Source: Eledone cirrhosa (taxonomy: Eukaryota). Taken from it: a stretch of DNA of 64,000 nucleotides. This document shows positions 16,899 to 64,000 of this stretch, piece after piece. The notes beneath the pieces were generated by a model, which made no database searches, was not told the DNA's origin, and saw only the letters and a list, made by a program, of their open reading frames with translations. The DNA lies in the NCBI GenBank assembly GCA_964016885.1, contig OZ024742.1, positions 135,780,001 through 135,844,000 on the forward strand. The letters are read 5' to 3'. Position 1 is the stretch's first letter, and every line of letters starts with the position of its first letter. The translations under genes and the position numbers were made by a program.

Positions 16899-16903
16899 TA
16901 TAT

Positions 16904-18085: not shown

Positions 18086-21000
18086 TCAGCTCAAAGCTTC
18101 ATATGGTTGTTCCTCTGTTAGTGGAATCAATTGCAAATTTATACCATCAGGATCGCACACTCGAGATGCAGCAACATGCAGTTGCCCATGACTGAATGCT
18201 AGATCATTCAAGTAGACACCGACTCGCTGAAAGTCTGTCCCTGTGCCTTGTTGACAGTCATGGAGAAGGCCAAATTGACGAGAAACTGTCTCCTTTGCCA
18301 AATGAATGGCAGCAGATCTTCACTTGGTCAGCATGATCCTCGTAATGAGAACCGATTCCTCTCTGTCTGGGAGTTTAGCTTCTAAAACTCTTCCGTTAAT
18401 CAATCTCTCAACAATCAATCTGGTCCCATTGCAAAGACCCATGTTATGATTGATATTTCTAAGCAATATAATCGGCATACCCTTTTTCAACCTCAAAATA
18501 TGTGGAGGAAAGCCGGGTATTTGAAGTGCATTCAGATACTCAGTCGGAACATCCATATTGTTCTGCTGATTAGGCTCCAATGCATCCGCATTGACGGTCA
18601 ACCATTCCTCTCCAGGAAACATTCCGGCTACTTGTGAATTTATTTCATCGACAGTTGCATTCGTATGAGTTAGAATAACGCATTCCGATATCCAGGAGAT
18701 ATTCTACCAAAAGGCATTCAAATTAGGGAACACCCAGTCAATCAATGCTTGGCGGTCCAGTGGCATGACCAAATGGTATGGGATTCTTACAGTTTGATTA
18801 TTACCAACGTGTGGCAATTCATCGTTTCCCAACTGAATCAACCATCGGCCGTATGTCTCAGCCTCTTCGTTTTACCCGAACATACGAAGTCGCATATTAT
18901 CGTGTAATCGCAAAACTCTGAAATGGCGCCACAACGGGGACTTTTTCAGACATGCATCGACAATTTGCGTTCTTTGAGTATTCCTAACAATTGGTAGAAC
19001 CTGTCTGAAATCGCCACCAAGAACGATAGTCTTACCACCGAATGGCAGGTCACTACCGCAGATATCTCTCAAAGTTCTGTCCAATGCCTCCAGCAAATAT
19101 CTGTGTGCCATTGGAGCCTCGTCCCAAATAATCAGAGACGTATTGCGTATAAGGCCCGCGAGTTCACTTTGTCCTGTAATGTTACAGACACTCAACTCAT
19201 CCGGAGCCAATGGAGCCTTGAAGATGAGTGGAAGGTCCTTCCACCACTCAGCAAAGTGGCAGCTATCCCACTGGTGGCCACAGGGAGAGCAATCTTCCTC
19301 TGAGCTCTGACTGCCGATAACATAGTGTTGAAACAGAATGTCTTTCCGGTGCCTCCTGGAGCATCTATGAAAGCACAAAGTTGCTCATTAGTGGAACTCG
19401 AGTGGAGAACGCCACCGACCAATTCTCTCTGATATTGGGTCAACATTGGTATACGTTCACCTACAATACGTTGCTGTTCCAGTGGATCAAACTGGAATAG
19501 TTCCCTCCGATCGAGTGGCAACCGTCTAAGCTACAATCTCATGTTCAATGCTAAGACACGTTGGCGCATTTCGTCATCAGGAATTGGCAAGTTGAAATCT
19601 GTTAACCATTTCAAATGAACTTCAAGCAGTTGCTTGAATATTGAGCAAAACAATAGTTTTCATCAAATTTTCATCATCGAAATGAAGATGATGCCTCAAA
19701 TCATCAGCCATAATTCCCCAATGGCGTTCAAATAACTCTTTTGGATCGGCAGGATGCAAAATCCTAGAATCGTGACAAACAAATGCCTTATTTGAGCTGG
19801 CATCTGTGTTGTTCCTGCAGCTTCCGTGGCGTTATTCCATTCGGAGTCATCCTGAAGGAGTCCCAGATGTTGACAAACAGCCTGGTATGTTTCATATTCC
19901 ACGCCATTGATTGTTTTCAAATCAGCGAAGCTCTGTTTACCTCTCGAAAAATCACTATGGAACAGAATTCGGAGATAAAACACATCACCAGATGCTGGAT
20001 GGATATTACAAACCCGTCCAATTGTCATGAATCTCAACTTTTGTTTTCTATCATTCCATTTCTTTTCCTTCTTATCCCACGTATAGTGCGAAGGGAAATT
20101 GCAGTAGAGTTGCCTTTGATCCGGGTTCAAAGCATGTTCCCTATTATGCTTGAACCACTCAGTCAATTCCGTATTTCGACACTTCTTCTAGTGTCCTGAA
20201 AACAGAGCATTTGCCTAGTCTCTAAGTGAACCGTCAGTTTCTGAACGCTGGGTTTGCGTTCATTGAGATCATAATCGAACAATCTCCAGGAAGCTTCGCT
20301 AGATCCAATCGAGCGAACATCCTGGAACCTGCCAACTTCATCTCCTTGGTTCGCTTCCTCATCCCTGACATTGATCATTGCCCGATCATGACCTTTGTAA
20401 ACATATTTGAATAGATATTTGCAAGCTTTCACTGAGCTACAAATTTCCACATTAATATGACAAGGATATTTCATAATCAAATATGGATTGTATGGCACAG
20501 CCCATTGATTTGTAACCTGTCGACCGTTTACATTTTTGACCAAACCGCCATCGGCAGGCGACCGTCTTCTGTATGAGGGATGAGCATCCCCATCGTTCCA
20601 GGAAGTGTTCGTGACAAAAGATTTCGTAAAATGCTTACTGCATTGGCCATTTTTCATGCAAGGCGCTTTCCGATTGGCCACGCCGCATTGGTTGTGCACC
20701 ATTGACTTTGCCACCAAGTTGCCTAGTGCCTCATTCTCCGGCAGTTCAGCACACACAATGCTGTCGACATCCTCAGCACATCTCAATTTGCAATCTCTAT
20801 GTAAAATGATCAGCAAATGTGCATGTGGCAATCCTCTTTTTTGGAATTCAATTACGTATGTAAAAGCAACTAAACCTCCAAAGATTCCCTCTTTTTCCAC
20901 ATCATCCATTATCTTTTTCAGATATCCTTTGAATACTCTTGCCACAATATCAGGACGGTCCTTTGGCTTTTGTCCTGGCAAAAGTGCATCCTTAATATCA

Positions 21001-22649
21001 GTCCATTCAGGATTGCATGTAACCGTTATAAACAAATCTGGCTTTCCAATCTTTCTGCCAATAGCAATTGCATCCTGATAGCGAATGATCATATATCTCG
21101 GGCCGCCGATGAACGACGATGGCAAAATGATGCGTCGACCAATTTGCTTGTAATTGGCATCATCGGCTGTTATCGCAACCTGTATATTATTATACAATTC
21201 AGCTCTGATATGTTGCTGATGTGTAGCTATATAATTTAGCCTTTGATTTTCGATCTTTGCGAATGCCATACAACAGTATTCCTGGAACAATCTGCTGGCT
21301 TGAAATAGTGCATTTCTCTGTTGATTCCTCTCGTTCAAATGGAACGCGTAAAAGTCGCGAATCGAATTATTGTGTCTATTGCCACCTCCCTGTTGATGCT
21401 TATTCTCATGATCATCTAAATGAACAGACATGTTCCATCCATTTTCACCTTTTGGTAATAAAAGAACATAATGCAATGCATCGTATGCCCTATTTAACTC
21501 ATTGATAGTCTTGAGACCACTATCTCTGCGATTGAGGACTATATCTCTCGATCCAGGCTTATCGACAATCAACACAGCAAGATCACGAAATCCTTCAGGG
21601 GCATTATATCACCGTTCGTGTTGATTCCTTGGCACTGCGTCAGCCTTAATCACCAATGATTGCTGTTGAACATTTTACAGTTCAGCCACCAACATGAAAT
21701 CCATAACATAAGGATTACACTCTCTAAGCCATGATTGCAAATCACGGATCAAATCACTTAACCTTTGCCGTTCAAGTTCAGTTATATTTCCCGGCAACTT
21801 CATCCAACCGATCCTGATATCCTCCTCCGATTCACTATAATCTGGATCGTTAACGTAAATATGAGCGAATCGAGGCCTCTCTCCTGGGGTAACTTCTAAA
21901 TTACCGATACAATGATACAAACGGCCTTGAACGACTACATTCGGTTGCCATCCTCCACTCTCAAACATCTCACTAACTATCTGCGATGCTAAAGCTAATG
22001 AATTGTTAATTTGCCGCGAATATTTGCGCAGGAATCTCCCTTGGTCTCCTTGATCACCCCACATATTTAGTAAGTTAAACTCCGGTGACGCCTCATCACT
22101 CGGCATTCGCAAGGGTTCTAGTTGAACTGCTCCTTTATGACAACACATTGTGGTCCACGTCTTTTCGTGCCTCCAAAGCAATGCTCCACAATGTGGACAC
22201 TCTGCTCGTCCAGCAATCTGAAAATGACACGGTTGCCATGATCCATTTTTAATATCATTCGTTCGCCTTCTAGCCTCTTTACTGGAATGAGGAGCACTTT
22301 AAGGACACATTTTCTGAACTTCTGTATTGCGCTGGCGCTGTTCAGCCAGCTCCTCCTCATCCATCGCAGCACGCCGTTGTTGGTGAATTCTGGCTATCTG
22401 CTGATGATGCTCAGCCAGTTCGTCTTCACCCATCGCAGCACGTCGTCGCTGCTTGGCTCCGGTGTTTCGTTGGCGTTGTTCAGCCAGCTCCTCTTCATTC
22501 ATGGCGGCACGTCTTCGTCTCTGAAGTTCGGCGTTCCGATGGTGCTGTTCGGCCCGTTTTTCTTCATTGCTGGCTGCACGCAGTCGCCGCTGTAGGTCAC
22601 TGTTTGATAAAGTCGAATTGCTTTTATTATAAATATTCATTTCGAGCAA
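18086..22649 (-). pseudogene. Helitron RepHel transposase (HUH Rep plus PIF1/SF1B helicase), frameshifted
   Basis: N-terminal 22-aa charged repeats and a Zn-finger-like CC motif. Rep motifs PDLFITVTCNPEW, VIEFQKRGLPHAH and KYLFKYVYKGHD (20163-21575). Helicase motifs FIDAPGGTGKT, LIIWDEAPM, GGDFRQVLP, LLRNI...GLCNGTRL and FSHGQLHVAASRV across several frames. Confidence 0.95.
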
Positions 22650-23496: not shown

Positions 23497-23545
23497 GTTT
23501 CAGAAGATCCCGTTAAGGGGGAAAGCAGCGATACTTTGCTTAAAC
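23497..23545 (+). ncRNA. Type I hammerhead, degenerate core (CAGAAGA)
   Basis: GTTT-CAGAAGA-TCCC-gttaa-GGGG-GAAA-GCA...TGC-TT-AAAC. Followed by tail stem-loop at 23573-23618. Confidence 0.65.
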
Positions 23546-23666
23546 TTTAATCTGTTATTTTAATAAATATTTGCTCTACGGTTCTTATATATTTGATATA
23601 TATTTATCCTTATCGAGCCCTCTTTGGATTTTAGTCTTCAAATTCATTATTATTACTATATACATA

Positions 23667-30646: not shown

Positions 30647-30657
30647 ATAATATATCT

Positions 30658-30831
30658 ACAAAGAAAGTGTGGTTAGAAACCAGGTGGACCGTATCGCACC
30701 AGAGTACTCGATACTTAGGGTAGTAGAGTGGGTGGGCAATAGGAAAAGAGTCAGGACCCCGACAGCTGAGCTCCTGTCGAATCTAGCAGTCGAAACGGCC
30801 GGAGCTCAGCCTTCGGAGTCCTGACTCTTTT

Positions 30832-30835
<4 letters not shown>
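30658..30835 (-). mobile_element. Family A copy with fold-back
   Basis: Tail, then AGGACCCCGACAGCTGAGCTC, then inverted arm ending TTCCTA|(TA)n. Confidence 0.85.
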
Positions 30836-30919
<84 letters not shown>

Positions 30920-34176: not shown

Positions 34177-34349
34177 TACTGGTACGGTTGTCCTTCCTGT
34201 TCTTATAGCCATGCCCATTCCAAGCTGAGGATCCGCTAAGGTAAAACAATTGTTCTCGGTATGGTGAACTAACTGTTGTGTAACCACGTCTATATATATA
34301 TCAGCTTGGAATGGGCATGGTTATAAGAACAGGAAGGACAACCCTACCA

Positions 34350-34354
<5 letters not shown>
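34177..34354. mobile_element. PLE-type fragment with degenerate HHR (34220-34259) and an inverted partial copy
   Basis: CTGAGGA-TCC-gctaa-GGT-AAAAC-aatt-GTT-CTCGG, same family as 53498. 34177-34228 is inverted at 34301-34354. Confidence 0.65.
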
Positions 34355-34415
<61 letters not shown>

Positions 34416-34417
<2 letters not shown>

Positions 34418-34540
34418 CAAAGGAATTATGGTAAGGAACCAGATGGACCATAACGCACCAGAGTACTCAATACTTAGAGTAGTAGAGTGGGAAATAGCCG
34501 TCGAAACGCCTTGAGCTCTGCCGTCGAGGTCATACTTTTT

Positions 34541-34544
<4 letters not shown>
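34416..34544 (-). mobile_element. Family A copy (tail plus inverted arm, left arm deleted)
   Basis: Tail joined to TAGCCGTCGAAAC...TTCCTA|(TA)n. Confidence 0.8.
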
Positions 34545-35766: not shown

Positions 35767-36138
35767 TGTCCTTCTCTAATAAAATGTTTTAGGAAATGAT
35801 TAGAGTCCTCTGTGAATGCCGCAAATAATATAATCACTTTACTTTGATCTTTCATCTTTAACCGCAACTGAGTAAAATTACATTTCCTTGAAAAATCTAA
35901 TGAAGCATGACTCGAAATTTATACCGAATATATATATTTCATATAAAATTTTATCGACATAACAAAGAACTTAGTAACTACCATTTATACATGTATATTT
36001 TTAACGCTGAACCTACATATATCCAGTATATTGCCAGCCCCACCAACAACATATGTGTGTTTATGAGTGTGTGCGTGAGAGTGTTTGTGTGTGTGTATGT
36101 ATGTTTTTTGGCCGTGTGCTCCTCTGTGTATGTGTATA

Positions 36139-36218
<80 letters not shown>

Positions 36219-37239
36219 GATAAATCTACCAAGAGTTTACGGTAGTGTCCAATCCGTATGAAGAACTCAATGTATTCCGGATATCATGGAAAGAAGAGAT
36301 GTAATGAAAAACTACTTTCGGTGAAAGATAAACGGTATACAGAGTCAAGATAAAATATTAAACAAATAATGAATAAACAATTCCTTATATTAAACAAAAA
36401 AAGTTCATTATTTAACGATCGTTTCTAGGATATATATGTGTTAGAATTGGTATGCATATTCAACAGATCTATGTACAAAATTATACAAAATTATACAAAT
36501 TATCAAGATTAAACATACATACCAAACACATATATACGCCGTCTTCAGAAATAATGAAGTATATTTATTGATAATAACAACAATTCAAAATTTCAGTTCA
36601 AAATTGACCAATGAAAACACAAAGGGTTAAATGCAGTTCGGTGTGTGTATATACATGTAAAACCCTTACACATATTTTACAAAAATGTATGTATAATTTG
36701 TATACGCATACTAAAAGGATGGATGCAAATACAAAATTTCAAGGTTAATGTCTCTGTAAGCTTACAATGCGCAGATAAGATGCGTATTGACACTTATGAA
36801 GTCAAGTATATAAATATATTTTTTCATACTCACACATATCCGTACAATCACACATACACGCGCGTATATGCATAAATATACACATAACCACGAACATACA
36901 AACACACACACACCCCCACTCACATTTATATATGTGGATATAAAATCATAAGCACATGGATATTAATTCACTCACATAAAACACTGGCACACACATTTTT
37001 AGATCAAGATACAGAAATTAGGTGGGAGGGGGGGGGGGTCAGTATTCAACTGTCTGAGCAGACTGCCTAATATAAATGTATCTATAAACTAAGAAAAAAA
37101 AAAAAAATAAAACAATAAAATATAATAAATAAAGCATTAAAGAGGAAAGAATAGAAAGAAAAACAGAAAAAAGAAAAAAGAAAAAAGAAAAAAGAAATAT
37201 ATCAAGAAAATAAATATATATATATATATACACATATAT

Positions 37240-37281
<42 letters not shown>

Positions 37282-37476
37282 ATATATATATATACAAAAA
37301 CATACATATATATACACATAGACACACACATATCCATACATAAATATACACACATATATAAACACATACATACATATACACACATCCACACTAAGAACAT
37401 ACATATACACACATATATAAACATATACATATACACACATACATACATATACACATATACATACAAATACACATAC

Positions 37477-37523
<47 letters not shown>

Positions 37524-37914
37524 CATACATATATGTACATACACGTACATATACACACACATATACATATAATTACACATACTATATAGACACAGATATA
37601 TATAACCACACACATACATGCACATATACAACACTTACATACTAATATACATACAGATATACACATACATAGCTATATATACACACAAATATATACAGAC
37701 TTACATATATACACATACAGACAAATACTTACGCATCTATATATCGGTATATACATACAAACACCACTACACTATCACACAACTTAGAAATACAAAGAGA
37801 AAGGTATATACCTATACACACATACATATACAAATAGAAAAACATATAGATATATATATATATATATATATACACATACACACACATATACATATACATA
37901 TATATATATATAAC

Positions 37915-37945
<31 letters not shown>

Positions 37946-38041
37946 TATATACACATACAAATACACATACATACACATACAGATATATACACATACAGGT
38001 ATATACCTATACACACATACATATACAAATAGAAAAACATA

Positions 38042-38075
<34 letters not shown>

Positions 38076-38392
38076 CACACACATATACATATACATATAT
38101 ATATATAACATATATATATATATATACATATATACATATATATATACACATACAAATACACATACATACACATACAGATATATACACATACATACATGTA
38201 CACACACATAGAAATATTTACGCATACACACATACACACATACATATACAGTCATACACTCACATACACCTACACGAACATACACATACACATATATAAA
38301 GATTTATATATACACACACACACACGCAACACATACACACATACACATATATATAAAAAATAAATAATAAAGATATATACATATATATATAT

Positions 38393-38433
<41 letters not shown>

Positions 38434-39138
38434 TACACATACACCTAAATATACATACACATACATACACACATACATAGACATACATGTACATACATAT
38501 ACGTACATCGATATACATATATATATATATATATATACACACACATAGACATATAGATACATACACACACAACTTACATACACACATATATATACATGTA
38601 TATTCATACATAGAATTAGATATATAATCATACATACATATGCACTTACTTATACTCATATATACAAATACATACGCATCCATATATGCGTATATACATA
38701 AAAAAAACCACTACAACTTCACCTAACTCAGACATACAAATAAAAATAATAATAAAAAGGCATATGTATATACATACACATACGCATTAATAGATATATA
38801 TATATACACACATACATACACATATATATATATATATATATATACACATAAATACATATATATATACACACATACACTCATACATATATATATATATATA
38901 TACATAGATACCCACACACTCATACCACCATAAATACACATACAAACACCCACATATACATATATATACACACGTATATATATATATATATATATACACA
39001 CACATAATAAAAAACAGACATGCACATATATATATATTTTTTTACACTTATATATACACATATTATATACACATACACAACCTCACTTATACACACATAC
39101 ACATAAGTTATATTATAATAATAAAAAAGAATAATATA

Positions 39139-39172
<34 letters not shown>

Positions 39173-39264
39173 CACATACATACATATATATACATACATA
39201 CATATAAACACATACATACATAAATACACACATACGAATATAGACATATATTCACACATAGACA

Positions 39265-39328
<64 letters not shown>

Positions 39329-40453
39329 TACATATACACAGACACATATACATACTCACATATATATATGTGTGTGTGTGCACACACACATATATACACA
39401 CATACACATATATACACATAAACACATATATGTGCATACATGCACACACACACACATATATCACATAGATACGAAGATAGACATATAAATAGAGAGACAT
39501 ACATATATATACACAACACACATACACACACATACATACACACGCATATACATATACATATATATATACACATATATATATTCCTATATATACATGCATA
39601 CATATATATACACATATATACACATACATACACATATACGTACACACATTCACATACACATACATATATACATGCATATATACACATATATACATACTTA
39701 CACACACTCATATATACACACACAATCTTACATTCATATTTGCATGCGCATATATGTATTTTTATATTTAGATATAAATACCCAAACCTATATAGACACC
39801 TACCTACATATATATTCATACATAGACGCTTACAAATACAGATGATAATAGTATGGGGGAAAGGGGGGGTTTGGAGAAGGGGATCAAAGTAAATATATGT
39901 TTCAAGAAACATAGAATATTTTCCGTATCTTTATCCAATGTATGTTCTTACATATTTTCAGTGTTAGGGAATACAACAAACAAGAACTAAGGCAAAATCT
40001 ATGCATCTCAAAATAAACAAGTATACCATTAATCATATGTTAACTAAACCAAAGATAGTCAACATATTGATTTCTAAGGTGTAAATTAGTTAGGTTTATA
40101 ATATTTGAAGCAGAATTTTGAAGTTAAACAGTAGTAGAGTATTAATTACAGTATAACTAAATTAAAGTTAATAATGTTATGGTATCAATATTAGGAAATG
40201 AATTTAGTAATAGGGAAAAAAAAAACACAAATAAAAATAAAATAAAGTATTACATCGGTAGTAGAATATAAATTATAGGTTAACTAAATTAAAAATTATA
40301 TATTTATTTCAATAGTATATGTTAATTAGGTATACAATACATAAAGCAGATATTGTATTTCATCAATAGCATAATATAATTATATGCAAATAGAAATCAA
40401 AATTAATACGCATACATATACATATACATACACATACATATATACATATATAT

Positions 40454-40492
<39 letters not shown>

Positions 40493-41007
40493 TATACATA
40501 TACATACACACACACACATACACATACACATATACATATACATATCTTTTTCAAAAAATTGCATAGAATATATTAACTAGGTATATATCCAAAACACAAC
40601 CCATTCTATGATTACATGACATTCTGCAATTCGTCTGTATAAGGATACTAATTTTAAGCAAATTAAAATTAAAATTTTTAGGTTGATTAAAACTAAAACC
40701 AAATTATAAATATATTTCTAAAATGTATATTAATTAGGTCTATAATACTAAAAATTATTTCTCTGTCATTGGATACACGATATTATTTTGTTATATTTTA
40801 TCTGTAAAAGAATTATGATAAAAGGTTTAAATAAATTAAAATTAATCTATAAATTAAATTACTAAGTATATATTAGTAATATTTAAAGGTTTTTCACAAT
40901 TTATGATTACATAATATTTTATATTCTCATCTGTAATAAAATTTTAATTAAATTAAATTTATAGGTTAACTAACATATAAATTAAATTAATTTCTAAAAT
41001 AATGTTA

Positions 41008-41663
41008 TTAATTAGGTTTATAATATTTAAATGTTTTTTTTAGTTTATGATTACACGATATAATTAATTCCTGTCGTTTATTTAATAAGATATCCTTAGA
41101 CTTCATTATTTCAAATAGTTCTTGGGAACATAATCTACATTCATTTCTATTATTTTGATAAGGGGTGGCTCTTTTGAGCACACTCCAGGTCAAATCATAT
41201 TTTATATTCTTATTTTTATAACTATTGATTTTTTCTGCTAGAGATGTTGTATTAGCCAGTGCGGCATTTTTAAAACTATGCTTGTGGGTATTAAACCTTG
41301 TCTTAAAATTGTTAGAGGTAGCTCCTATATATGAGCAAATAGAATCTTTAGTTTTAACATTACATTTATAGACTATGTTGTTAACAAGACAATTCCCTTT
41401 TAATGGGCAGTTTGCTTTGTTTCTACAGTTACATCCTTTCGTTAATTCTGTATTTGAGGAGATATTATGGTTAATTTGATGTACTGGTGGTATACTTATG
41501 GTTTTCTTACATTTATATGCATTATATGCACTTATATTTTGTTTTATGTTATTTGTTGTAGAGTATGAGAATTTAACTGTAGACCTATTTAAGATTTGAT
41601 GGTATTTGTGGTTTGGCGGGAAGTTTTTCTCAAGGATATAAAAAATTTTTTTAGCAATATTAT
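41008..41663 (-). pseudogene. Inverted duplicate of the PLE endonuclease region
   Basis: Reverse complement of 42627-43282. Confidence 0.9.
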
Positions 41664-41677
41664 TTTAGCAATATTAT

Positions 41678-43282
41678 TTGGATGACATTAACATTATTAC
41701 ACATGCTAGACTAACACTACTGGAATTTCAGAATGAATACTGGACCAGAAACACATACAGTAATCTTTTTGATATTACTATGGGTTCAAGCGATTCCGCC
41801 CAAATTACTGATCTTGTGGGCCTCTTTCTCCTTTTCAACATAAATGCCTCTTTTCCCCACCTCAAAGGTGGTTTATATCGTGATGACTGTCTTCTTCTTT
41901 CTAACAACCTTAGCCTTTCAGAAATTGAAAAAAACAAAAAACATATTAGAACTTTCCTTAAAGACTATTATAATCTTAATATTACTTTTGAAAAAACAAG
42001 TAAAGTAGTAAATTTCCTAGATATAACTTTAGATTTAGCTACGGGTATCTACCAACCTTACCATAAACCTAACCAAAACTTACATTACATACACTCACAA
42101 TCTAATCACCCTAAATCTATCCTTAAAAACCTTGCATATAATATATCACTTAGAATTTCTAACCTTTCTTCTAACCAAGATGTATTTGATAAAAATGCGA
42201 CCTTCTATAACGAAGCTCTAGATAGAAGTGGCCACAAAAATAGATTAGAGTATATACCTTCTACTAAAAATACTGAAAGCATACAACATAATATTACCAA
42301 CAAACACCAAATGAAAAGTACACACCTAAATGCCACCCACACTATACCCCAAAATACCAAATCTTCTAATATAAAGTATAGTAACTCTCAAAAAACTATT
42401 CATCATACAACTATAATAAATATTAATAATAAAACTCCTAATAAAAAGGATAAAACACCTAAATCTACAAATATAACTAAAAATAGTTGTGGTGAGATCA
42501 TTAACATTAATCCTCCTAGTAAAAATCACGATACAACCTATAAAAATAATAAAAATAATAAACAACATAGAAACCGTAATAGACGGGTTACTTGGTATAA
42601 TGCTCCTTTTAATTTACAAGTTAAGGATAATATTGCTAAAAAATTTTTTTATATCCTTGAGAAAAACTTCCCGCCAAACCACAAATACCATCAAATCTTA
42701 AATAGGTCTACAGTTAAATTCTCATACTCTACAACAAATAACATAAAACAAAATATAAGTGCATATAATGCATATAAATGTAAGAAAACCATAAGTATAC
42801 CACCAGTACATCAAATTAACCATAATATCTCCTCAAATACAGAATTAACGAAAGGATGTAACTGTAGAAACAAAGCAAACTGCCCATTAAAAGGGAATTG
42901 TCTTGTTAACAACATAGTCTATAAATGTAATGTTAAAACTAAAGATTCTATTTGCTCATATATAGGAGCTACCTCTAACAATTTTAAGACAAGGTTTAAT
43001 ACCCACAAGCATAGTTTTAAAAATGCCGCACTGGCTAATACAACATCTCTAGCAGAAAAAATCAATAGTTATAAAAATAAGAATATAAAATATGATTTGA
43101 CCTGGAGTGTGCTCAAAAGAGCCACCCCTTATCAAAATAATAGAAATGAATGTAGATTATGTTCCCAAGAACTATTTGAAATAATGAAGTCTAAGGATAT
43201 CTTATTAAATAAACGACAGGAATTAATTATATCGTGTAATCATAAACTAAAAAAAACATTTAAATATTATAAACCTAATTAA
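41678..43282 (+). CDS. PLE polyprotein, 5'-truncated: RT (motif B' onward, thumb) plus C-terminal GIY-YIG endonuclease; resembles the Hydra clade
   Basis: MGSSDSAQITDLVG, LYRDD, VNFLDITL, YHKP, SNHP. CNCx5C, VYK...YIG, R...H, CxxC and LNKRQEL. Uninterrupted 534-codon frame beginning at the inversion junction. Confidence 0.9.
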   Translation: MDDINIITHARLTLLEFQNEYWTRNTYSNLFDITMGSSDSAQITDLVGLFLLFNINASFPHLKGGLYRDDCLLLSNNLSLSEIEKNKKHIRTFLKDYYNLNITFEKTSKVVNFLDITLDLATGIYQPYHKPNQNLHYIHSQSNHPKSILKNLAYNISLRISNLSSNQDVFDKNATFYNEALDRSGHKNRLEYIPSTKNTESIQHNITNKHQMKSTHLNATHTIPQNTKSSNIKYSNSQKTIHHTTIININNKTPNKKDKTPKSTNITKNSCGEIININPPSKNHDTTYKNNKNNKQHRNRNRRVTWYNAPFNLQVKDNIAKKFFYILEKNFPPNHKYHQILNRSTVKFSYSTTNNIKQNISAYNAYKCKKTISIPPVHQINHNISSNTELTKGCNCRNKANCPLKGNCLVNNIVYKCNVKTKDSICSYIGATSNNFKTRFNTHKHSFKNAALANTTSLAEKINSYKNKNIKYDLTWSVLKRATPYQNNRNECRLCSQELFEIMKSKDILLNKRQELIISCNHKLKKTFKYYKPN

Positions 43283-43797
43283 TAACATTATTTTAGAAAT
43301 TAATTTAATTTAAATGTTAGTTAACCTATAAATTTAATTTAATTAAAATTTTATTACAGATGAGAATATAAAATATTATGTAATCATAAATTGTGAAAAA
43401 CCTTTAAATATTACTAATATATACTTAGTAATTTAATTTATAGATTAATTTTAATTTATTTAAACCTTTTATCATAATTCTTTTACAGATAAAATATAAC
43501 AAAATAATATCGTGTATCCAATGACAGAGAAATAATTTTTAGTATTATAGACCTAATTAATATACATTTTAGAAATATATTTATAATTTGGTTTTAGTTT
43601 TAATCAACCTAAAAATTTTAATTTTAATTTGCTTAAAATTAGTATCCTTATACAGACGAATTGCAGAATGTCATGTAATCATAGAATGGGTTGTGTTTTG
43701 GATATATACCTAGTTAATATATTCTATGCAATTTTTTGAAAAAGATATGTATATGTATATGTGTATGTGTATGTGTGTGTGTGTATGTATATGTATA

Positions 43798-43836
<39 letters not shown>

Positions 43837-44961
43837 ATATATATGTATATATGTATGTGTATGTATATGTATATGTATGCGTATTAATTTTGATTTCTAT
43901 TTGCATATAATTATATTATGCTATTGATGAAATACAATATCTGCTTTATGTATTGTATACCTAATTAACATATACTATTGAAATAAATATATAATTTTTA
44001 ATTTAGTTAACCTATAATTTATATTCTACTACCGATGTAATACTTTATTTTATTTTTATTTGTGTTTTTTTTTTCCCTATTACTAAATTCATTTCCTAAT
44101 ATTGATACCATAACATTATTAACTTTAATTTAGTTATACTGTAATTAATACTCTACTACTGTTTAACTTCAAAATTCTGCTTCAAATATTATAAACCTAA
44201 CTAATTTACACCTTAGAAATCAATATGTTGACTATCTTTGGTTTAGTTAACATATGATTAATGGTATACTTGTTTATTTTGAGATGCATAGATTTTGCCT
44301 TAGTTCTTGTTTGTTGTATTCCCTAACACTGAAAATATGTAAGAACATACATTGGATAAAGATACGGAAAATATTCTATGTTTCTTGAAACATATATTTA
44401 CTTTGATCCCCTTCTCCAAACCCCCCCTTTCCCCCATACTATTATCATCTGTATTTGTAAGCGTCTATGTATGAATATATATGTAGGTAGGTGTCTATAT
44501 AGGTTTGGGTATTTATATCTAAATATAAAAATACATATATGCGCATGCAAATATGAATGTAAGATTGTGTGTGTATATATGAGTGTGTGTAAGTATGTAT
44601 ATATGTGTATATATGCATGTATATATGTATGTGTATGTGAATGTGTGTACGTATATGTGTATGTATGTGTATATATGTGTATATATATGTATGCATGTAT
44701 ATATAGGAATATATATATGTGTATATATATATGTATATGTATATGCGTGTGTATGTATGTGTGTGTATGTGTGTTGTGTATATATATGTATGTCTCTCTA
44801 TTTATATGTCTATCTTCGTATCTATGTGATATATGTGTGTGTGTGTGCATGTATGCACATATATGTGTTTATGTGTATATATGTGTATGTGTGTATATAT
44901 GTGTGTGTGCACACACACACATATATATATGTGAGTATGTATATGTGTCTGTGTATATGTA

Positions 44962-45015
<54 letters not shown>

Positions 45016-45107
45016 TGTCTATGTGTGAATATATGTCTATATTCGTATGTGTGTATTTATGTATGTATGTGTTTATATGTATGTATGTATATATATGTAT
45101 GTATGTG

Positions 45108-45141
<34 letters not shown>

Positions 45142-45427
45142 TATATTATTCTTTTTTATTATTATAATATAACTTATGTGTATGTGTGTATAAGTGAGGT
45201 TGTGTATGTGTATATAATATGTGTATATATAAGTGTAAAAAAATATATATATATGTGCATGTCTGTTTTTTATTATGTGTGTGTATATATATATATATAT
45301 ATATACGTGTGTATATATATGTATATGTGGGTGTTTGTATGTGTATTTATGGTGGTATGAGTGTGTGGGTATCTATGTATATATATATATATATATGTAT
45401 GAGTGTATGTGTGTATATATATATGTA

Positions 45428-45458
<31 letters not shown>

Positions 45459-46334
45459 GTGTATGTATGTGTGTATATATATATCTCTATTAATGCGTAT
45501 GTGTATGTATATACATATGCCTTTTTATTATTATTTTTATTTGTATGTCTGAGTTAGGTGAAGTTGTAGTGGGTTTTTTTTTATGTATATACGCATATAT
45601 GGATGCGTATGTATTTGTATATATGAGTATAAGTAAGTGCATATGTATGTATGATTATATATCTAATTCTATGTATGAATATACATGTATATATATGTGT
45701 GTATGTAAGTTGTGTGTGTATGTATCTATATGTCTATGTGTGTGTATATATATATATATATATATGTATATCGATGTACGTATATGTATGTACATGTATG
45801 TCTATGTATGTGTGTATGTATGTGTATGTATATTTAGGTGTATGTGTATATATGTATATATATATATATATATAGATATATGTATGTGTATATATATATA
45901 TGTATATATCTTTATTATTTATTTTTTATATATATGTGTATGTGTGTATGTGTTGCGTGTGTGTGTGTGTATATATAAATCTTTATATATGTGTATGTGT
46001 ATGTTCGTGTAGGTGTATGTGAGTGTATGACTGTATATGTATGTGTGTATGTGTGTATGCGTAAATATTTCTATGTGTGTGTACATGTATGTATGTGTAT
46101 ATATCTGTATGTGTATGTATGTGTATTTGTATGTGTATATATATATGTATATATGTATATATATATATATATGTTATATATATATATGTATATGTATATG
46201 TGTGTGTATGTGTATATATATATATATATATATATCTATATGTTTTTCTATTTGTATATGTATGTGTGTATAGGTATATACCTGTATGTGTATATATCTG
46301 TATGTGTATGTATGTGTATTTGTATGTGTATATA

Positions 46335-46365
<31 letters not shown>

Positions 46366-46401
46366 GTTATATATATATATATGTATATGTATATGTGTGT
46401 G

Positions 46402-46440
<39 letters not shown>

Positions 46441-46758
46441 TTTTCTATTTGTATATGTATGTGTGTATAGGTATATACCTTTCTCTTTGTATTTCTAAGT
46501 TGTGTGATAGTGTAGTGGTGTTTGTATGTATATACCGATATATAGATGCGTAAGTATTTGTCTGTATGTGTATATATGTAAGTCTGTATATATTTGTGTG
46601 TATATATAGCTATGTATGTGTATATCTGTATGTATATTAGTATGTAAGTGTTGTATATGTGCATGTATGTGTGTGGTTATATATATCTGTGTCTATATAG
46701 TATGTGTAATTATATGTATATGTGTGTGTATATGTACGTGTATGTACATATATGTATG

Positions 46759-46803
<45 letters not shown>

Positions 46804-47000
46804 GTATGTGTATTTGTATGTATATGTGTATATGTATGTATGTGTGTATATGTATATGTTTATATATGTGTGTATATGTATGTTCTTAGTGTGGATGTGT
46901 GTATATGTATGTATGTGTTTATATATATGTGTGTATATTTATGTATGGATATGTGTGTGTCTATGTGTATATATATGTATGTTTTTGTATATATATATAT

Positions 47001-47040
<40 letters not shown>

Positions 47041-47727
47041 ATATATGTGTATATATATATATATATATTTATTTTCTTGATATATTTCTTTTTTCTTTTT
47101 TCTTTTTTCTTTTTTCTGTTTTTCTTTCTATTCTTTCCTCTTTAATGCTTTATTTATTATATTTTATTGTTTTATTTTTTTATTTTTTCTTAGTTTATAG
47201 ATACATTTATATTAGGCAGTCTGCTCAGACAGTTGAATACTGACCCCTCCCCCCCCCCTCCCACCTAATTTCTGTATCTTGATCTAAAAATGTGTGTGCC
47301 AGTGTTTTATGTGAGTGAATTAATATCCATGTGCTTATGATTTTATATCCACATATATAAATGTGAGTGGGGGTGTGTGTGTGTTTGTATGTTCGTGGTT
47401 ATGTGTATATTTATGCATATACGCGCGTGTATGTGTGATTGTACGGATATGTGTGAGTATGAAAAAATATATTTATATACTTGACTTCATAAGTGTCAAT
47501 ACGCATCTTATCTGCGCATTGTAAGCTTACAGAGACATTAACCTTGAAATTTTGTATTTGCATCCATCCTTTTAGTATGCGTATACAAATTATACATACA
47601 TTTTTGTAAAATATGTGTAAGGGTTTTACATGTATATACACACACCGAACTGCATTTAACCCTTTGTGTTTTCATTGGTCAATTTTGAACTGAAATTTTG
47701 AATTGTTGTTATTATCAATAAATATAC

Positions 47728-47882
47728 TTCATTATTTCTGAAGACGGCGTATATATGTGTTTGGTATGTATGTTTAATCTTGATAATTTGTATAATTTTG
47801 TATAATTTTGTACATAGATCTGTTGAATATGCATACCAATTCTAACACATATATATCCTAGAAACGATCGTTAAATAATGAA
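47728..47882 (+). ncRNA. Type I hammerhead with ~116-nt stem II (mirror copy 36404-36558, minus strand)
   Basis: TTCATTATTT-CTGAAGA-[long hairpin TATATATGTGTT...AACACATATATA]-GAAAC-gatc-GTT-AAATAATGAA. Confidence 0.8.
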
Positions 47883-47927
47883 CTTTTTTTGTTTAATATA
47901 AGGAATTGTTTATTCATTATTTGTTTA

Positions 47928-47965
<38 letters not shown>

Positions 47966-49460: not shown

Positions 49461-50242
49461 TCTGCCATATATGTCGGCATATAAGGCTACCGATACAGCC
49501 AATCTACCGATGCTGCCAATCTACCGCCATCATTCACATTATTATGATAAAATAATAATAATATGTGGGTGGCATGATTGCACGACAATAAAAATATGCA
49601 TATTCGCCTATTCGCCAAAAGAGAAATCCAAAACCATCATCATACACAGTAAACAAAACAACTACTGGCCTTGGGTCCTTTAAAGCTCTCCGCCAGATTG
49701 TATGGATGTTATTAAATACATTAAACTATTTCAAAATGTATTATCTGTAAACAATTGACAATTAAATATCAAATTTCATAAATTGGTATTTTTTAAAGTA
49801 ATATCAGCATTGTTTGCAATTACAACAGCTGGTCGTGTTATCATTACCGGGTAGCAGTAATTGTACAGGGTGGGTTATGGAGGAGAACGGTAAGTGTAGA
49901 TTGTGTTAAATAATTGAGAATATCTCCCCCACAGTTTTTTTCATTAGAATTTGAGTTAAAGAAAGTATACCCTTATTGAATTTGATTAATACATTCAATA
50001 TAATACATTTTAAAATACGATCTGGTGGGTTCGTCTTGTACAGCGAACCTACATTTTAACTTGAAAATGTTGGGGTCATCTCATACGCCAAGACGTTTTG
50101 TACGCCACCATATACGGGATATAGGATAGATATATATATATGTGTGTGAGTGTGTGTGTGTGCGCGCGCGCGTGTGTGTGTACGTGTGTGTAAGTTTGTT
50201 TGAAATAGAAATAGAAGCTTTCGCTGTATATATATATATATA

Positions 50243-50425
50243 TCGAAGGAAATGTGGTAAGGAACCAGGTGGACCATAACGCACCAAAGTACTCGATACT
50301 TGAGGTAGTAGAGTGGGTAATAGGAACCAGTAAGACCCCGACAGCTGAGCTCAAGCCGTTTCGACGGCTAATTCAGAATTAGCCGTCGAAACGGCTTGAG
50401 CTCAGCTGTCGGGGTCTTACTGGTT

Positions 50426-50429
<4 letters not shown>
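50243..50429 (-). mobile_element. Family A copy with perfect palindrome (50321-50429, 54-bp arms)
   Basis: Centre GCTAATTC-a-GAATTAGC. Tail at 50243-50320. Confidence 0.9.
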
Positions 50430-50468
<39 letters not shown>

Positions 50469-51185: not shown

Positions 51186-51512
51186 GTAAGTTAACAAATC
51201 AATTCATATTTGGAACTCTATATGAATTGGAACTCTATATGAATTGATTTGTTAACTTACCAAGGATAAGTTAAACCGTTAAGGCATATTCTCCTTGGAT
51301 ATGTCAAAATTTATAAAACACAATTCGTATTTTATCTGATGACAGCGTACCCAAATTTTGGTACCCTTGAAATATATATAATAGAATAAATATAGTTTCC
51401 ATTTACTTAATATCATTGTATATTATACTCCAGAAAACCTGTAGAATGCTCAGAATCAGTTATAAACATTTATATTTGTTGAATGACCAACAAATTGAAT
51501 ATCCCTTCTGCT
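51186..51512 (+). mobile_element. PLE 3' end (family of 61370-61850) with junction hairpin, HHR and tail
   Basis: Inverted repeat at 51186-51260 with a 17-bp tandem duplication. HHR at 51328-51388: TATTTTAT-CTGATGA...GTACC/GGTAC...GAAA-TATATATA-ATAGAATA. Tail stem at 51427-51447. Confidence 0.8.
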
Positions 51513-55809: not shown

Positions 55810-55992
55810 AAAAAGTAAAAAGAAATAACAAAGCAAGCGACAGTACAATAATGAAGAAATATATTAGTTTAACGCTTGGTATAGTAGGAAAAGAGCCTTA
55901 GTCTTTTGGACACTAGTCCTTCATCAGAAGATAGAATGAGAAATAAAAGATTAAATGGAAAGATATTGATTGAGGAGAGGAAGGAACGGAAT
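55810..55992 (-). mobile_element. Family B PLE-type end with HHR (55896-55931)
   Basis: TCTT-CTGATGA-a-GGAC-tagt-GTCC-aAAA. 55937-55992 is repeated inverted at 56832-56888. Confidence 0.65.
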
Positions 55993-56007
55993 ATATATAT
56001 ATATATA

Positions 56008-56810
56008 TAACAAAGGAAATGTGGTAAGGAACCAGGTGGACCATAACGCACCAAAGTACTCAATACTTGATGTAGTAGAGTGGGTAATAGGAACCAGTAA
56101 GACCCCGACAGCTGAGCTCAAGCCGTTTCGACGGCTAATTCTGGACTAAATGAAAATTTATCCTGGTATTTAAATAGCCAATCTTCTCAAGGGGTAATTC
56201 CATATATGGTCAAAGTGATTGTCAAAAATCAGTAGTAATTCTGTGGTTGCAAATTAGTAGGGGAGATGGTGGCTAAACCTGCCAGTAGGAGAAAGAGGGG
56301 AGGGGGTGGAGTAGACCCAATCAAGCGTTGGTAGTGCCAGCTACAGCTGGGCATGAGGTCAAAGAAGATACAGGGGAGGGGGAGGGGGAGGAAGTCGGAA
56401 CGGTAGGTAGAACAATGGGGGGTAGAAATATATAGGGAAGAAAAAATACTGAGTGAAGAAAAGCAAATAAGTGTAAAGAAAAAAGTAAAGTAAATTAAAT
56501 TCTACGACCTAGGTCTCTAGCTATTGTTAGGCTAGAATAAATAAATAAATAAAGAAAGAAAGAAAGAAGTAAAGAAAGAAATAAAGAAATAACGAAATAA
56601 GTAAAAGAACTAGGTGGGATGGAATAGGCAAGGACCCTTTTAAGAGGTATAAGTACGTAAATGATACGGTGACGGGTCAACAAAGGGGCCAAAATACTAA
56701 AGAGACTACCACGAAATAAACAATAAAGGTTTCCATCCCGGGCACAATGCCAGCAACCACCCAGTGCAGCAAAGTGAACTTGTACGAGATAATAATTCTG
56801 AGTTCCGAGA
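56008..56810 (-). mobile_element. Longest family A copy, without fold-back
   Basis: Tail and HHR 3' half match the 50243 copy, then continue through the 5' half of the ribozyme into a pyrimidine-rich body. Confidence 0.8.
56102..56195 (-). ncRNA. Type I hammerhead with U3-A8 variant core
   Basis: ACCCC-TTGAGAA-GATTGGCTA...TAGCCGTC-GAAA-CGGCT-tgagctc-AGCTG-TC-GGGGT. Confidence 0.75.
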
Positions 56811-56952
56811 AAATATATATATATATATATATTCCGTTCCTTCCTCTCCTCAATCAATATCTTTCCATTTCATCTTTTATTTCTCATATGCCCCAAGGCT
56901 CTGATACCATCAACACTATAAACACAGATCTGGCCTATCTAAGAATTGACTA

Positions 56953-58922: not shown

Positions 58923-58996
<74 letters not shown>

Positions 58997-58999
<3 letters not shown>

Positions 59000-59123
59000 G
59001 AAGGAAGTGTGGTAAGGAACCAGGTGGACCATAACGCACCAGAGTACTCGATACTTAGTGTAGTAGAGTGGGTAATAGGAAAAGAGTCAGGACCCCCGAC
59101 GACTGAGCTCCGGCCGTTTCGAC
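58997..59123 (-). mobile_element. Family A copy truncated at the base of HHR stem II
   Basis: Tail through CCGTTTCGAC, then microsatellite. Confidence 0.85.
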
Positions 59124-59851: not shown

Positions 59852-60851
59852 TTATAGTTATTTATGTACTGTTATTCTTATAATCTTCTCTTCATCGCTG
59901 TTAAACTTCATGAAGAGTGACATCCTTGTCTTGTGTCTCGATCTCAGTCTAAGAATAAGAAAACAAAAACAGAAATCGTGGAACAATAAACAGACAGATT
60001 ATTTAGTGAGAGAAAGTAAAGGATAGAGAAAGCAAAGTAGTGCAGTTGGAAAGACAGAGAGAGAATGAGGGAGTCACTAAAGCACCACGCTGTTGTATTG
60101 TTTGTTCAGCAATGAGAGAAATATATATATGTATTTGTATCATAAACTGAATTTCAGCCTACTCCTACTTCTCGAATACAAAAAGTGAATTATAGCCAGA
60201 AACACAAACACACATATTTTTTTCATTGGACTGCGTTGATGCTGGATCTCAGCACTTAATGTTCTCAACAATAAACGTTATTTTATCGATCTGCTTTTCT
60301 CGAACCGCTAACCTATGAGTATTAACCAAACGCATACAGACAAACACTCACACATAAAACACACATATATATTTGTATATGAATCTGGATGTATGTTTGT
60401 GTGTGTGCGCACGTGCGTGTGTTATATGTATGTGTGTGTGACTTCAGTTGACAGGTAGTTTTCAAATCATTGACATTATTTTAAAATGTTAAATGACTTA
60501 GAAACCAGGACAAGTTGTATGAGAAAATAAACATAAATTTTGTGTACAATACTGTTTTATATCATCATACACATCGTCTTGGCTTCTAAGACATTTCCCT
60601 ATATACAAAGAGATGGCGTTTGCATATGTGTGTGTTTGCAAATAGAACTGTCGATTGACCAATCCCACAAACAACACACATAAAACCGAACTTATACTTG
60701 AACATCAAAGGATGAACACTTACACAAGAAATGAGGACAATTTATTTTCCTTAAAATTTTACCACCGGGAAGGTGGCCCGACAAAAATAAACTCAATATT
60801 AAGAGAAAGATAGGACATACATATATACATAAATACATTTTAAGTAAATAA

Positions 60852-61038
60852 TTGTTTATACTTTTGGCACAAGGCCAGCAATTAGCCAGTACATTACTGG
60901 TACTTTATTTTATCGACCCTGTAAGGATGAATGGCAAAGTTAACCTCGACGGGATTTGAATTCAGACCGTAATAGGACGTAACTATGCTGGAAAGCATGG
61001 CATCCAACCCTCTACCGATACTGCCAATTCACCGCCCT
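60852..61038 (-). mobile_element. tRNA-derived SINE with 16-bp target-site duplication
   Basis: Same family as 2806. CATTTTAAGTAAATAA at 60836-60851 and 61039-61054. Confidence 0.9.
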
Positions 61039-61369: not shown

Positions 61370-64000
61370 GCAGAAGCGACATTCAATTTGTTGGTAATTC
61401 AACAAATATAAATGTTTATAACTGATTCAGAGCACTCGACAGTTTTCTGAAGTATAATATTCATTGATATTAAATAAATGGAAACTATATTTATAAAACC
61501 ATATTTATTCTATTATATATATTTAAAGTGTACCAAAACTTTGGTACGCTTTCATCAGATAAAATACGAAATGTTTTTTATAAATTTTGACATAACCAAG
61601 GAAAATACCTTAACGGTTCAAGTTTTCCTTCTATAGTGAAGGGATAAGAGAAGAAAAGTCAGATATTTCAAATTGTTAAGATGAGTATGCAAATGAGTAT
61701 GCTAATGAGGTTTAGGTAAAGGGTTGAAAAAACGTTATTTTAGAAGCTATGGAGAATTTAAATAATTATGATGTGTTTGTATGCTTAGGAAAGAAGAAAA
61801 AGGAAGATGAGCTTTATTTACATTTGTATTTAAATTTATTTACCTATATTATTATTTTTTATCAGATCTCCTAAATGTGTGTTTATGGTTATGCCAGCGT
61901 TCTTTGAATTTTGTTGAAGTGGCACTAATATAGTTAAATATTTTGTCTCTAGTTTTAACTGTGCATTTATAAACTACGTTTTTGTCTAAACAATTATTTT
62001 GTAAAGGGCAGTTTGATTTGATTGTACAGTTACATTTTATGGAATTGTTGTTGCTCGGAACGGTACTATTGTTCTGAATATTGTTGTTAGGAATATTATT
62101 ATTGTTATTTTGGTTAGTTTGGTTAGGGTTTAAATTTAAGTTTCTATTATTAATTCTATTTATATTGTGTGCTATGTTCATAGTAGTAGAGTAGGATAGT
62201 TTTATAGTGTGTCTGTTAAAAATAGAATGGTATATGAGGGCTTTAGGAAACATTTATCTAGTGCTTTAAAGAATAGCTTTGCTAAAGTTGTTTTAACACT
62301 TAATGTGAATGGGGGAGAGTACCAAATAATATTTATAGTTCTAGTGTTTTGTTTGGTTTAGTGTTTAATTTGAATTGTTTATTATTATTATAATTAATAC
62401 TAGGATGATTTGTCATGTTATTGTTATCCATGTATTTAATTTTATTCGAGTATCCTGCTCTAAGTAAAGCTTCATTATAATATTCTGCCTTATCATCAAA
62501 CATATTTTTATTAGCAGAGATGCGTGAAATCCGTTGTTGGACGCTATTGACAATAGTGATTTTAATACTTCTAGGATGATTAGAATTGAAACTTACATAA
62601 TTCAGATTTTCGTTAATTTTATGGAAAAGATAGTAAAGTACTGTGCTAAGGTTTAAGGTTACATCTAAGAAGTTAACGATTTTGTAGCTATTCTCTATTT
62701 CTAACTTAAGGTTGTAGATGTTGATAAATTGTATTATGGATTTCCTTTTCCTATTAATTTCACTATTGCTATGGTTTTCAATTAAAATAGTCACGATATA
62801 AACTTCCGGTCATCTCTGGCATTTTCCTATGCAGTACATTATGAATAAATAATCCAATGAGGTCCGTTACTTGCGCCGAGTCAGATGATCCCATAGTCAT
62901 ATAAAAATTGTTTTTTCTGTCGGCTCTTATCCAGATATGATTATTATTCTACTTCAATTTCACATTTAATTTTGAATTTAAAACACAACAATATAGACTA
63001 TTCAATATCTTGGAGAACGATTTCGAAAGAGCCTGTATACCGAAATATGGCTTTATCAAGATTCTGTAACTTGTGTATCGAAGACATTTTTTATATAATG
63101 AACTGTCAAAACTCTATTAATCTTAGAACAGAATTATTTTCTTCATGAAGACATCGCCAAAATTCCACGTTCAGAACTATTTTTAATTCATAATATTCCT
63201 ATATACCTTCAAAATGATCCTATCTTCTTAAAAATTTATATGTAAATTTTAAAAATTTTTTAATATATTTAATATTTTTAATATTTTTATTATTTCTAAT
63301 TTTTTTTTATATTTTTACCTTTTCACATTAATTTTTTTTAATATATATATTTAATATATATATTTAATTCTGGCCTTATTTTTCTAATGACACCCTTCTA
63401 AATATATTTTTTTAGGTGTAGATTGATAATCTTTAATTGACATTCTGAAAATGTATTCTTACGATAGTTCTTCGAAAAGCACATTACATTTTTCCTCTAT
63501 TTTGGATATTCAAACTTTTACACATCTTTCCACTCAAATAATTAATCTCACACAAAATAATTTATAATTTTCTTTATATATTTTTTAGTAAATCATTCAT
63601 CAAATTTAACGTTTAACAAACAAAATTGGAGTTATCTTTCCTCTCTCAATCGTGCAAATATAAACATATTATGTATGATAATCTATATAACTTCGCTAAA
63701 TTAACAATATTCTGAAAACATTTTCAATGTTGAACAAAATATTCGAATCTACAAATGTTCTCCTCTCACAACTTGAACCACCTATTTGTTTATGTAAAAT
63801 ACAAAATCAAAATCATTCGTAACATCATTAGAAATATAAATAACTAATAATTGTAAATTATTTCTATTTCTATAATACTAATACATATGCAATTATTAAT
63901 ATATAGATATTTATATACATAACCTATTGTAATGTAATAAAATAAAAATACTTACAAATATAATTCTTCATATAATCTAATTGATCATATATACAATATT
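61370..64000. mobile_element. Second PLE locus: tail/HHR end (-), RT to EN N-half (-), then EN C-half and UTR (+)
   Basis: HHR at 61506-61566 (GAAA mutated to TAAA). Minus 61852-62947 encodes MGSSDSAQVTDLIG, VNFLDVTL, SNHP and CNCx5C. Plus 62945-63185 encodes YSISW...CNLC...NLRTELFS. Confidence 0.85.

Follow-up and report, generated by a model that had tools for sequence, protein, structure and literature searches.

The DNA analysed here is a stretch of 64,000 nucleotides of Eledone cirrhosa (assembly GCA_964016885.1, contig OZ024742.1, positions 135,780,001 to 135,844,000), AT-rich eukaryotic DNA loaded with microsatellites; this whole stretch is called the window, and all coordinates refer to it. 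At 36216-47936 it carries an insertion of 11.7 kb made of two inverted, head-to-head arms of one Penelope-like element (PLE), of which one ends in a 134-bp tail and the other, without a tail, extends further into the coding sequence. We propose, with about even confidence, that the two arms were made by coupled twin priming from both strands of the target, probably on one RNA, rather than by independent events. The layout itself is not special: PLEs arranged in this way have been published, and smaller examples occur in the window itself. The insertion and its borders comprise:

36135..36215, no strand: left (TA)n target array, found by TRF
36216..36349, minus: 134-bp tail, on the left arm only, with a motif variant 55 nt from the tail end
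36350..41663, minus: tailed arm, 5314 bp, with the pseudo-long terminal repeat (pLTR) end and hammerhead, the 4.65-kb 3' region and the GIY-YIG endonuclease part
41663, minus: 5' end of the tailed arm, equivalent of 42627
36404..36558, minus: type-I hammerhead ribozyme motif, mirror copy, by pattern match
41650..41677, plus: 14-bp tandem duplication, at the joint, of the bases that end the tailed arm (units 41650-41663 and 41664-41677)
41678..42626, plus: 949-bp unique spacer in the sense of the tail-less arm, from the reverse transcriptase (RT) core (YxDD region) to the thumb, with an N/K/H/T-rich stretch
41678..43282, plus: 5'-truncated open reading frame (ORF) of a Hydra-clade PLE, with RT part, CxCX5C linker and GIY-YIG-type endonuclease
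42627..47936, plus: portion of the tail-less arm mirroring the left arm (entire tail-less arm 41678-47936, 6259 bp)
44568..47072, plus: degenerate TG/TA microsatellite tract of 2.5 kb in the 3' region (mirror 37210-39696)
47728..47882, plus: type-I hammerhead motif with a 10-bp stem I, a long stem II and a minimal stem III with palindromic loop
47934..48068, no strand: right (TA)n target array, 3 bases common with the element at the tail-less end

BLAST of the window against itself gave one long inverted match, 36350-41663 on the minus strand against 47936-42627 (5326 columns, 99.3% identity), beyond which the tail-less arm carries 949 bp more. The initial annotation, which had described an inverted PLE with unequal arms and a 14-bp tandem duplication at their junction, thus had its coordinates right and the duplication too. 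Between the arms, the inner zone of 1934 bp differs by 2 mismatches and no gap, the microsatellite-rich zone of 2.5 kb by 5 mismatches and 8 gap events, and the outer zone (860/864 bp) by 1 mismatch and one 4-bp indel, which leaves 3 substitutions in 2.8 kb outside the microsatellite; several of the differences are homopolymer or dinucleotide slips, of the type produced by sequencing errors. The tail sits between the left arm and its (TA)n array and has no second copy in the window, while the right arm passes directly into (TA)n at about 47934. The left and right flanks are unlike, and the mirror symmetry ends exactly at the element's own 3' end. Since the tail is on the left arm only and the 949 bp on the right arm only, neither arm is a plain copy of the other.

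The inner border of the right arm was located by comparison with related copies: they align from 41677 on and diverge upstream (211 reads in sequencing run X20, one contig each in X1 and X2), their 30 upstream letters continuing the RT frame when read by eye. Because these alignments break at 41677, the beginning of the right arm is placed at 41677/41678, where 1 base is shared. The four sequencing runs compared with 40560-42626 hold at most 0.65 of the sampled words and probably represent other genomes; they gave native sequence and variants, and no joint informative on inverted copies among the minority of loose ends and variants displayed. Two inner substitutions between the arms could be polarised, both as derived on the tailed arm: at 40977 the base of the right arm is found in nearly all the depth of X1 and in the X2 contig, and at 41646 the right arm retains the KFF found in relatives, the tailed-arm base being probably the derived one. 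A 10-base word is common, in direct orientation, to 42633-42642 and to the native sequence just upstream of 41677, a sharing reached in 9 of 2721 random pairs. This word near both 5' breakpoints is possibly a shared pause site; it was set aside as a part of any model of the joint, its orientation being direct and no model using it having been found.

Comparable insertions were sought in the window by scanning from the edges of 102 TA arrays and by family homology. Besides the large one, eight small two-armed insertions were found, starting at 9156, 10926, 28961, 30650, 33614, 34404, 50230 and 53390, and all nine bear exactly one tail-like extension (28961 and 53390 called by position only). 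Their arm lengths, tailed/tail-less, are:

9156: 59/51; 10926: 50/50; 28961: 206/234, spacer ownership uncertain
30650: 36/62; 33614: 223/223; 34404: 5/45
50230: 55/56; 53390: 31/75, with a gap inside the tailed arm; large insertion: 5314/6259

The excess of the tail-less arm, annotated for the large insertion, clearly recurs in 30650 and 34404, but in 9156 it is the tailed arm that is longer. Both 30650 and 34404 are too short for a spacer flip by recombination or assembly, and perfect palindromes of 50 bp (10926) and 223 bp (33614) persist undeleted nearby. At the tail-less end, the six families represented have 3, 3, 2, 6, 3 and 1 bases in common with (TA)n, 3 of them at the large insertion: four of the six thus reach at least 3 shared bases, for which the chance per site is 0.14 (p about 0.005, the value for 10926 being read by eye). 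The tail is on the left in 8 of the 9 insertions (p 0.039), and in 12 of 14 once tailed copies with a single arm are counted too, among them 61370 (left) and 51262 (right), with p about 0.013 calculated by hand; this bias, noticed post hoc and in one window, places the tailed arm on the minus strand over 9156-61630 and spans several families, with 10926 and 51262 as exceptions. No host gene explaining it appeared in a Pfam scan of 124 of the 177 candidate frames, which gave Helitron and RT fragments and two weak hits below cut-off.

Four of the two-armed insertions belong to one small hammerhead-end family, which has 7 copies with a tail of 80-90 bp, the 3 others being one-armed:

9156-9357, 9883-9981, 30650-30836, 34404-34542, 50230-50430, 55997-56147, 58985-59123: copies of the small hammerhead-end family

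The pair at 34179-34350, with 50-bp inverted arms lying between TA arrays around a hammerhead-end fragment, could be a MITE or a tail-less pair; being symmetric and without tail, it is probably a different kind of element and was left out of the comparison. At 51186-51511 a tailed plus-strand copy with a 5' fold-back resembles, on a small scale, the joint at 41663.

The frame 41669-43282 is open over 537 codons, and its translation associates in one ORF the YRDD motif of RT and a VYKC..YIG endonuclease core. It is matched at E<=1e-30 by 315 proteins covering both the RT and the endonuclease parts, and a Pfam scan of this ORF gave no match at E<=0.1. In the alignment the linker CxCX5C is found as C394-x-C396-x5-C402, and C492-xx-C495, E498, N511 and C520-x-H522 correspond to CxxC and CxH flanking the conserved E and N; no CCHH motif was seen there by eye. 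A CxCX5C linker, CxxC-E-N-CxH, the lack of CCHH and insertion into (TA)n are the marks given for the Hydra clade (Craig et al. 2021, PMC8557442), and by these sequence features the element is a Hydra-clade EN+ Penelope-like retrotransposon. Membership of Naiad/Chlamys was rejected: those elements have an N-terminal endonuclease and no canonical hammerhead, whereas this element has its endonuclease at the C-terminus and carries a hammerhead motif. Hammerhead motifs with a stem I of at least 10 bp number 2 in the window against 0 in 100 shuffles, by pattern search; the predicted cut would fall about 65 nt before the tail-less end, and an unconstrained fold of the predicted ribozyme partly closes its core. 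Rfam returned no hammerhead among the 150 listed of its 204 matches, which are microsatellite-driven miRNA matches below the gathering score. The PLE identity and the tail proposed at the outset are supported.

Full-length relatives match residues 2-3 of the ORF at their positions 280-297 or so. About 285 N-terminal residues are thus missing, including the region of the N-terminal RWK and DKT motifs of the Hydra clade, where the aligned relatives carry RW(K/R) and DK(T/S), so that the copy is not autonomous. The initial annotation had read recent activity from the near-identical arms and the uninterrupted ORF; these do speak for youth, but in a truncated ORF the open frame indicates youth and not an active copy. 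No direct repeat of the 3' end, i.e. no partial tandem with a direct pLTR, was found upstream of the ORF, as expected in a 5'-truncated copy. After the stop codon come 4.65 kb (43283-47936) with a strand-biased TG/TA tract of 2.5 kb; the first 450 bp of this 3' region are common to other copies, and the region may be captured host DNA. By our estimate a full copy would exceed about 7 kb.

Related loci bear on the nature of the tail. Among 79 metagenome loci fetched (L001-L079), 35 have an N-terminal match, and in 33 of these GAGCACT lies within 150 nt before the ORF; a wider pattern is found in 26 of the 35, compared with 85 of 1750 random windows. A variant matching 9 of 10 positions stands 55 nt from the end of the 134-bp tail. 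Over 12 tails of the window, the distance from motif to tail end is 53-59 nt in 9, 66 nt in 1, and the motif is absent from 2, although the pattern was widened with these tails in view and 7 of the 12 belong to one family. The sites, which stand 53-65 nt from the TA array, are:

36269, 9221, 9948, 30710, 33671, 34469, 50295, 56062, 59050, minus: tail motif sites

The tail thus appears, on sequence grounds, to be element sequence continuing past the pLTR end, and the GAGCACT/GAGYRCT-like motif is a candidate protein-binding site that would set the RT start. A coding tail was rejected, no ORF start having been detected with an N-terminal profile either in the tail or in the remainder of the window.

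The reading that we favour is the following. A Hydra-clade PLE would have entered (TA)n in a single retrotransposition event, its endonuclease nicking both strands of the target. Reverse transcription would be primed by the top-strand 3' end where the tail of the RNA ends, and by the bottom-strand 3' end at a TA microhomology 134 nt inward from there, immediately beyond the hammerhead. The two cDNAs would be extended in the direction of the RNA 5' end, on a single template or on two sister RNAs of one particle, one reaching 41678 and the other stopping, or being trimmed, at the equivalent of 42627, so that the asymmetry would be primary; the cDNA ends would then be joined head-to-head by end-joining, leaving the 14-bp templated duplication. 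Two cDNAs made to the same RNA 5' end would give palindromes with equal arms or, after stalling or trimming, with arms unequal either way. In vitro, a PLE protein, predicted to form a dimer, cleaves and extends both target strands (Frangieh et al. 2024, PMC11167929), and its reverse transcription starts at two adjacent internal sites bounding the tail (PMC11167929). Two independent priming events from opposite target strands had been put forward in the initial annotation: priming on both strands is indeed the best reading, but the word "independent" is doubtful, because the arm lengths co-vary across the nine insertions, which suggests coupled events. The 14-bp duplication with its 1 shared base fits synthesis-dependent end joining, and a deletion history would give the same.

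Several observations weigh against this proposal. The correlation behind the coupling (Spearman 0.70, permutation p 0.0014, n=9) leaves out one-armed copies, which inflates it, 4 of the 9 insertions belong to one family, and the arm ends were read by eye, within about 5 nt. Three or four of the nine insertions are near-perfect palindromes, explained as easily by fold-back; 9156 turns at stem II of the hammerhead with the tailed arm longer, which is a local fold-back, and at 51186-51260 the 5' end of a copy is repeated over a short length in inverted orientation, accompanied by a 17-bp tandem duplication. The microhomology at the tail-less end would also result if a fold-back strand were attached by end-joining. 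The site at which reverse transcription starts in vitro is the same for both strands, from which alone a single tail per insertion does not follow (PMC11167929). No read or contig crosses the joint in the four runs, probably of other genomes, and the polarised substitutions are few. Among the 79 metagenome loci, 16 have some inverted match and 40 some direct match; the 3' end is repeated, inverted, at the 5' end in L029, L046 and L066 only, which have different flanks and a shared junction and count as one case at most, and L046 and L066 carry the tail on the long arm.

What other history could give the same structure? It seems unlikely that a fold-back was followed by a central deletion, i.e. 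that a cDNA running past 41678 snapped back to give a palindrome of about 12.5 kb which lost some 950 bp on the tailed side, with the templated 14-bp duplication. In its favour, head-to-head PLE junctions have been interpreted in print as products of self-priming (PMC3846280), breakage is most likely in inverted repeats whose arms are long, nearly identical and separated by little spacer (PMC7999016), short templated repeats arise from synthesis-dependent end joining (PMC9303309), and fold-back signatures are seen at 9156 and 51186. On the other hand this history requires a second event soon after the insertion, the same asymmetry exists in tiny insertions, where palindromes seem stable, and both polarisable substitutions (n=2) lie on the tailed arm and not on the second-made one: as far as two derived substitutions go, they would fit twin priming or a spacer flip better than a deletion. 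It had been stated at the outset that the tail-less arm cannot be a simple fold-back copy of the tailed arm. This holds for the sequence as it stands, but it leaves room for a later central deletion, the 14-bp duplication fitting end-joining under either history, and it overlooked a crossover or a mis-phasing that would flip the 949-bp spacer. Spacers between long inverted repeats can flip-flop. The tailed arm would then have been the long one at first, after a fold-back, and a crossover or an unphased assembly would have turned the spacer together with the inner parts of the arms. We consider such a flip improbable. With arms of 5.3 kb at 99.3% identity, it is true that only reads above about 6 kb fix the orientation; two derived inner substitutions on the short arm are expected if the inner part was made second, and in L046/L066 it is the long arm that bears the tail. 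But a flip leaves unexplained the small copies with a longer tail-less arm, 30650 and 34404, and the native bases upstream of 42627 have no match to the spacer end that could seed a snap-back.

Two further explanations have very little to recommend them. The joint could be an artefact of library or assembly due to fold-back chimeric reads, which we find hardly credible: it was not seen in the four runs, probably of other genomes, and several arm differences are of the slippage type, but the symmetry stops at the 3' end of the element with different flanks, a limit that a library fold-back would not respect, and the layout is common to the eight small insertions of the window. It is just as hard to believe in two separate insertions side by side, made at different times. 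The family is indeed abundant and young in the related run X1 (448 of 1775 aligned records at 99% identity or more), and TA arrays collect insertions. However the joint lacks (TA)n, the 2.8 kb outside the microsatellite show 3 substitutions between the arms whereas family copies range from below 90% to above 99% identity, and both arms exceed 5 kb while PLE insertions are mostly short (median 128 bp in a Chlamydomonas pair, PMC9977147).

The twin-priming reading can be extended, tentatively and with more doubt than confidence, to a general rule: inverted PLE insertions would routinely come from a twin priming programmed to use one RNA, in which one target strand is served by the tail end and the other by a TA-microhomology site at a fixed position beyond the hammerhead, with the conserved GAGYRCT-like element at about 55 nt from the tail end positioning the first start. 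If true, this would explain the single tail per insertion, the co-varying arms up to 6 kb and the asymmetry either way; the left-tail excess of 12/14 would mean that a chromosomal polarity (fork direction, transcription) picks the tailed strand.

The rest of the window contains other mobile sequences. On the minus strand, 61370-62945 is a second Hydra-type element, degraded, which stands head-to-head with 62951-63172 on the plus strand, an endonuclease fragment of a different Hydra-type family that has no DNA similarity to it. Frames of Helitron-type Rep/PIF1 helicase occur in pieces on the minus strand over 15575-22298 (20163-21608, 18872-19384, 18323-18703 and 15575-16054), and two short segments, 16904-17021 and 23516-23656, recur 6.6 kb apart, one inverted and one direct, flanking the Helitron frames of 18323-22298. 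A dispersed repeat of about 180 bp, which we take to resemble a tRNA-derived SINE, is present in three copies (2806-2991, 7980-8132 and 60849-61036). A 55-bp segment is found twice, 55936-55990 and 56833-56887, facing across TA arrays with other insertions between, and both copies adjoin hammerhead-like cores.

For the way in which PLEs make inverted copies and one-sided tails, self-priming with endonuclease resolution is the published scheme, and the extension of both strands in vitro was not linked to inversions. A single 11.7-kb insertion cannot decide on the mechanism, because its spacer can be flipped or deleted afterwards. The main lead is thus statistical and not the locus: one tail, microhomology at the tail-less end, co-varying arms, a motif at fixed distance, and a bias of tail side. 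In a genome rich in tailed palindromes, the tail side, the arm lengths and the end microhomology can be counted, which separates fold-back from twin priming. Besides, such a long near-perfect inverted repeat is likely a fragile site and a source of double-stranded RNA.

The enzymes of L1 and of PLEs are unrelated, the former having an APE and the latter a GIY-YIG endonuclease. Twin priming of L1 is nevertheless similar in that both target nicks prime a cDNA, the second by microhomology, and the products are joined head-to-head (bioRxiv 2024.08.27.596794). There the two lengths correlate (R=0.76) and overlap in 17% of 5'-inverted copies, but the overlap is short (median 22 bp) while here it covers nearly a whole arm, and the second primer anneals far inside the RNA whereas here the second site is fixed at 70-135 nt from the first (bioRxiv 2024.08.27.596794). 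The PAc Poseidon element in vitro shares the two adjacent internal starts bounding the tail and the cutting and extension of both strands; it differs by its clade and by a tail lying in the ORF start, the tail here being untranslated, with no N-terminal match in the window (PMC11167929). Inverted copies are not discussed in the passages of Frangieh et al. drawn on here (PMC11167929), and we found no published proposal that inverted PLE copies arise by twin priming, in a search of mainly open-access literature that did not extend to the older Penelope papers of 2004-2006.

Among PLEs the arrangement is familiar. Arkhipova et al. 2013 described pLTRs in head-to-head orientation, one of which bears the tail, and ascribed the inversion to self-priming and endonuclease resolution (PMC3846280; PMC8557442). 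The inverted-pLTR Penelope elements of Adineta vaga and other animals have, like this insertion, a head-to-head 5'-truncated copy with a tail at one end (PMC3846280; PMC8557442), but with arms of about 200 bp to 1 kb instead of 5.3 and 6.3 kb (PMC3846280). According to Craig et al. 2021, an inverted 5'-truncated copy often abuts the 5' end, and the tail is at either end, often at one only; in the Hydra family Penelope-13_HM a 5'-truncated inverted copy lies at the 5' end (PMC8557442). The element resembles the Hydra clade by its C-terminal GIY-YIG, CxCX5C, lack of CCHH, hammerhead near the 3' end and (TA)n target (PMC8557442). It departs from it by its size, the listed consensus sequences measuring 1.1-3.0 kb when the truncated arm alone measures 6259 bp here and its part after the stop codon 4.65 kb by itself; members of the clade are generally short, below 3 kb, which is a tendency and not diagnostic (PMC8557442). 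The tail of 134 bp also exceeds the 30-40 bp quoted for PLEs (PMC8557442), and the N/K/H/T-rich stretch of about 90 residues in the ORF is a further difference from the clade. With these particularities, the element adds a member to the Hydra clade, in an already published PLE arrangement.

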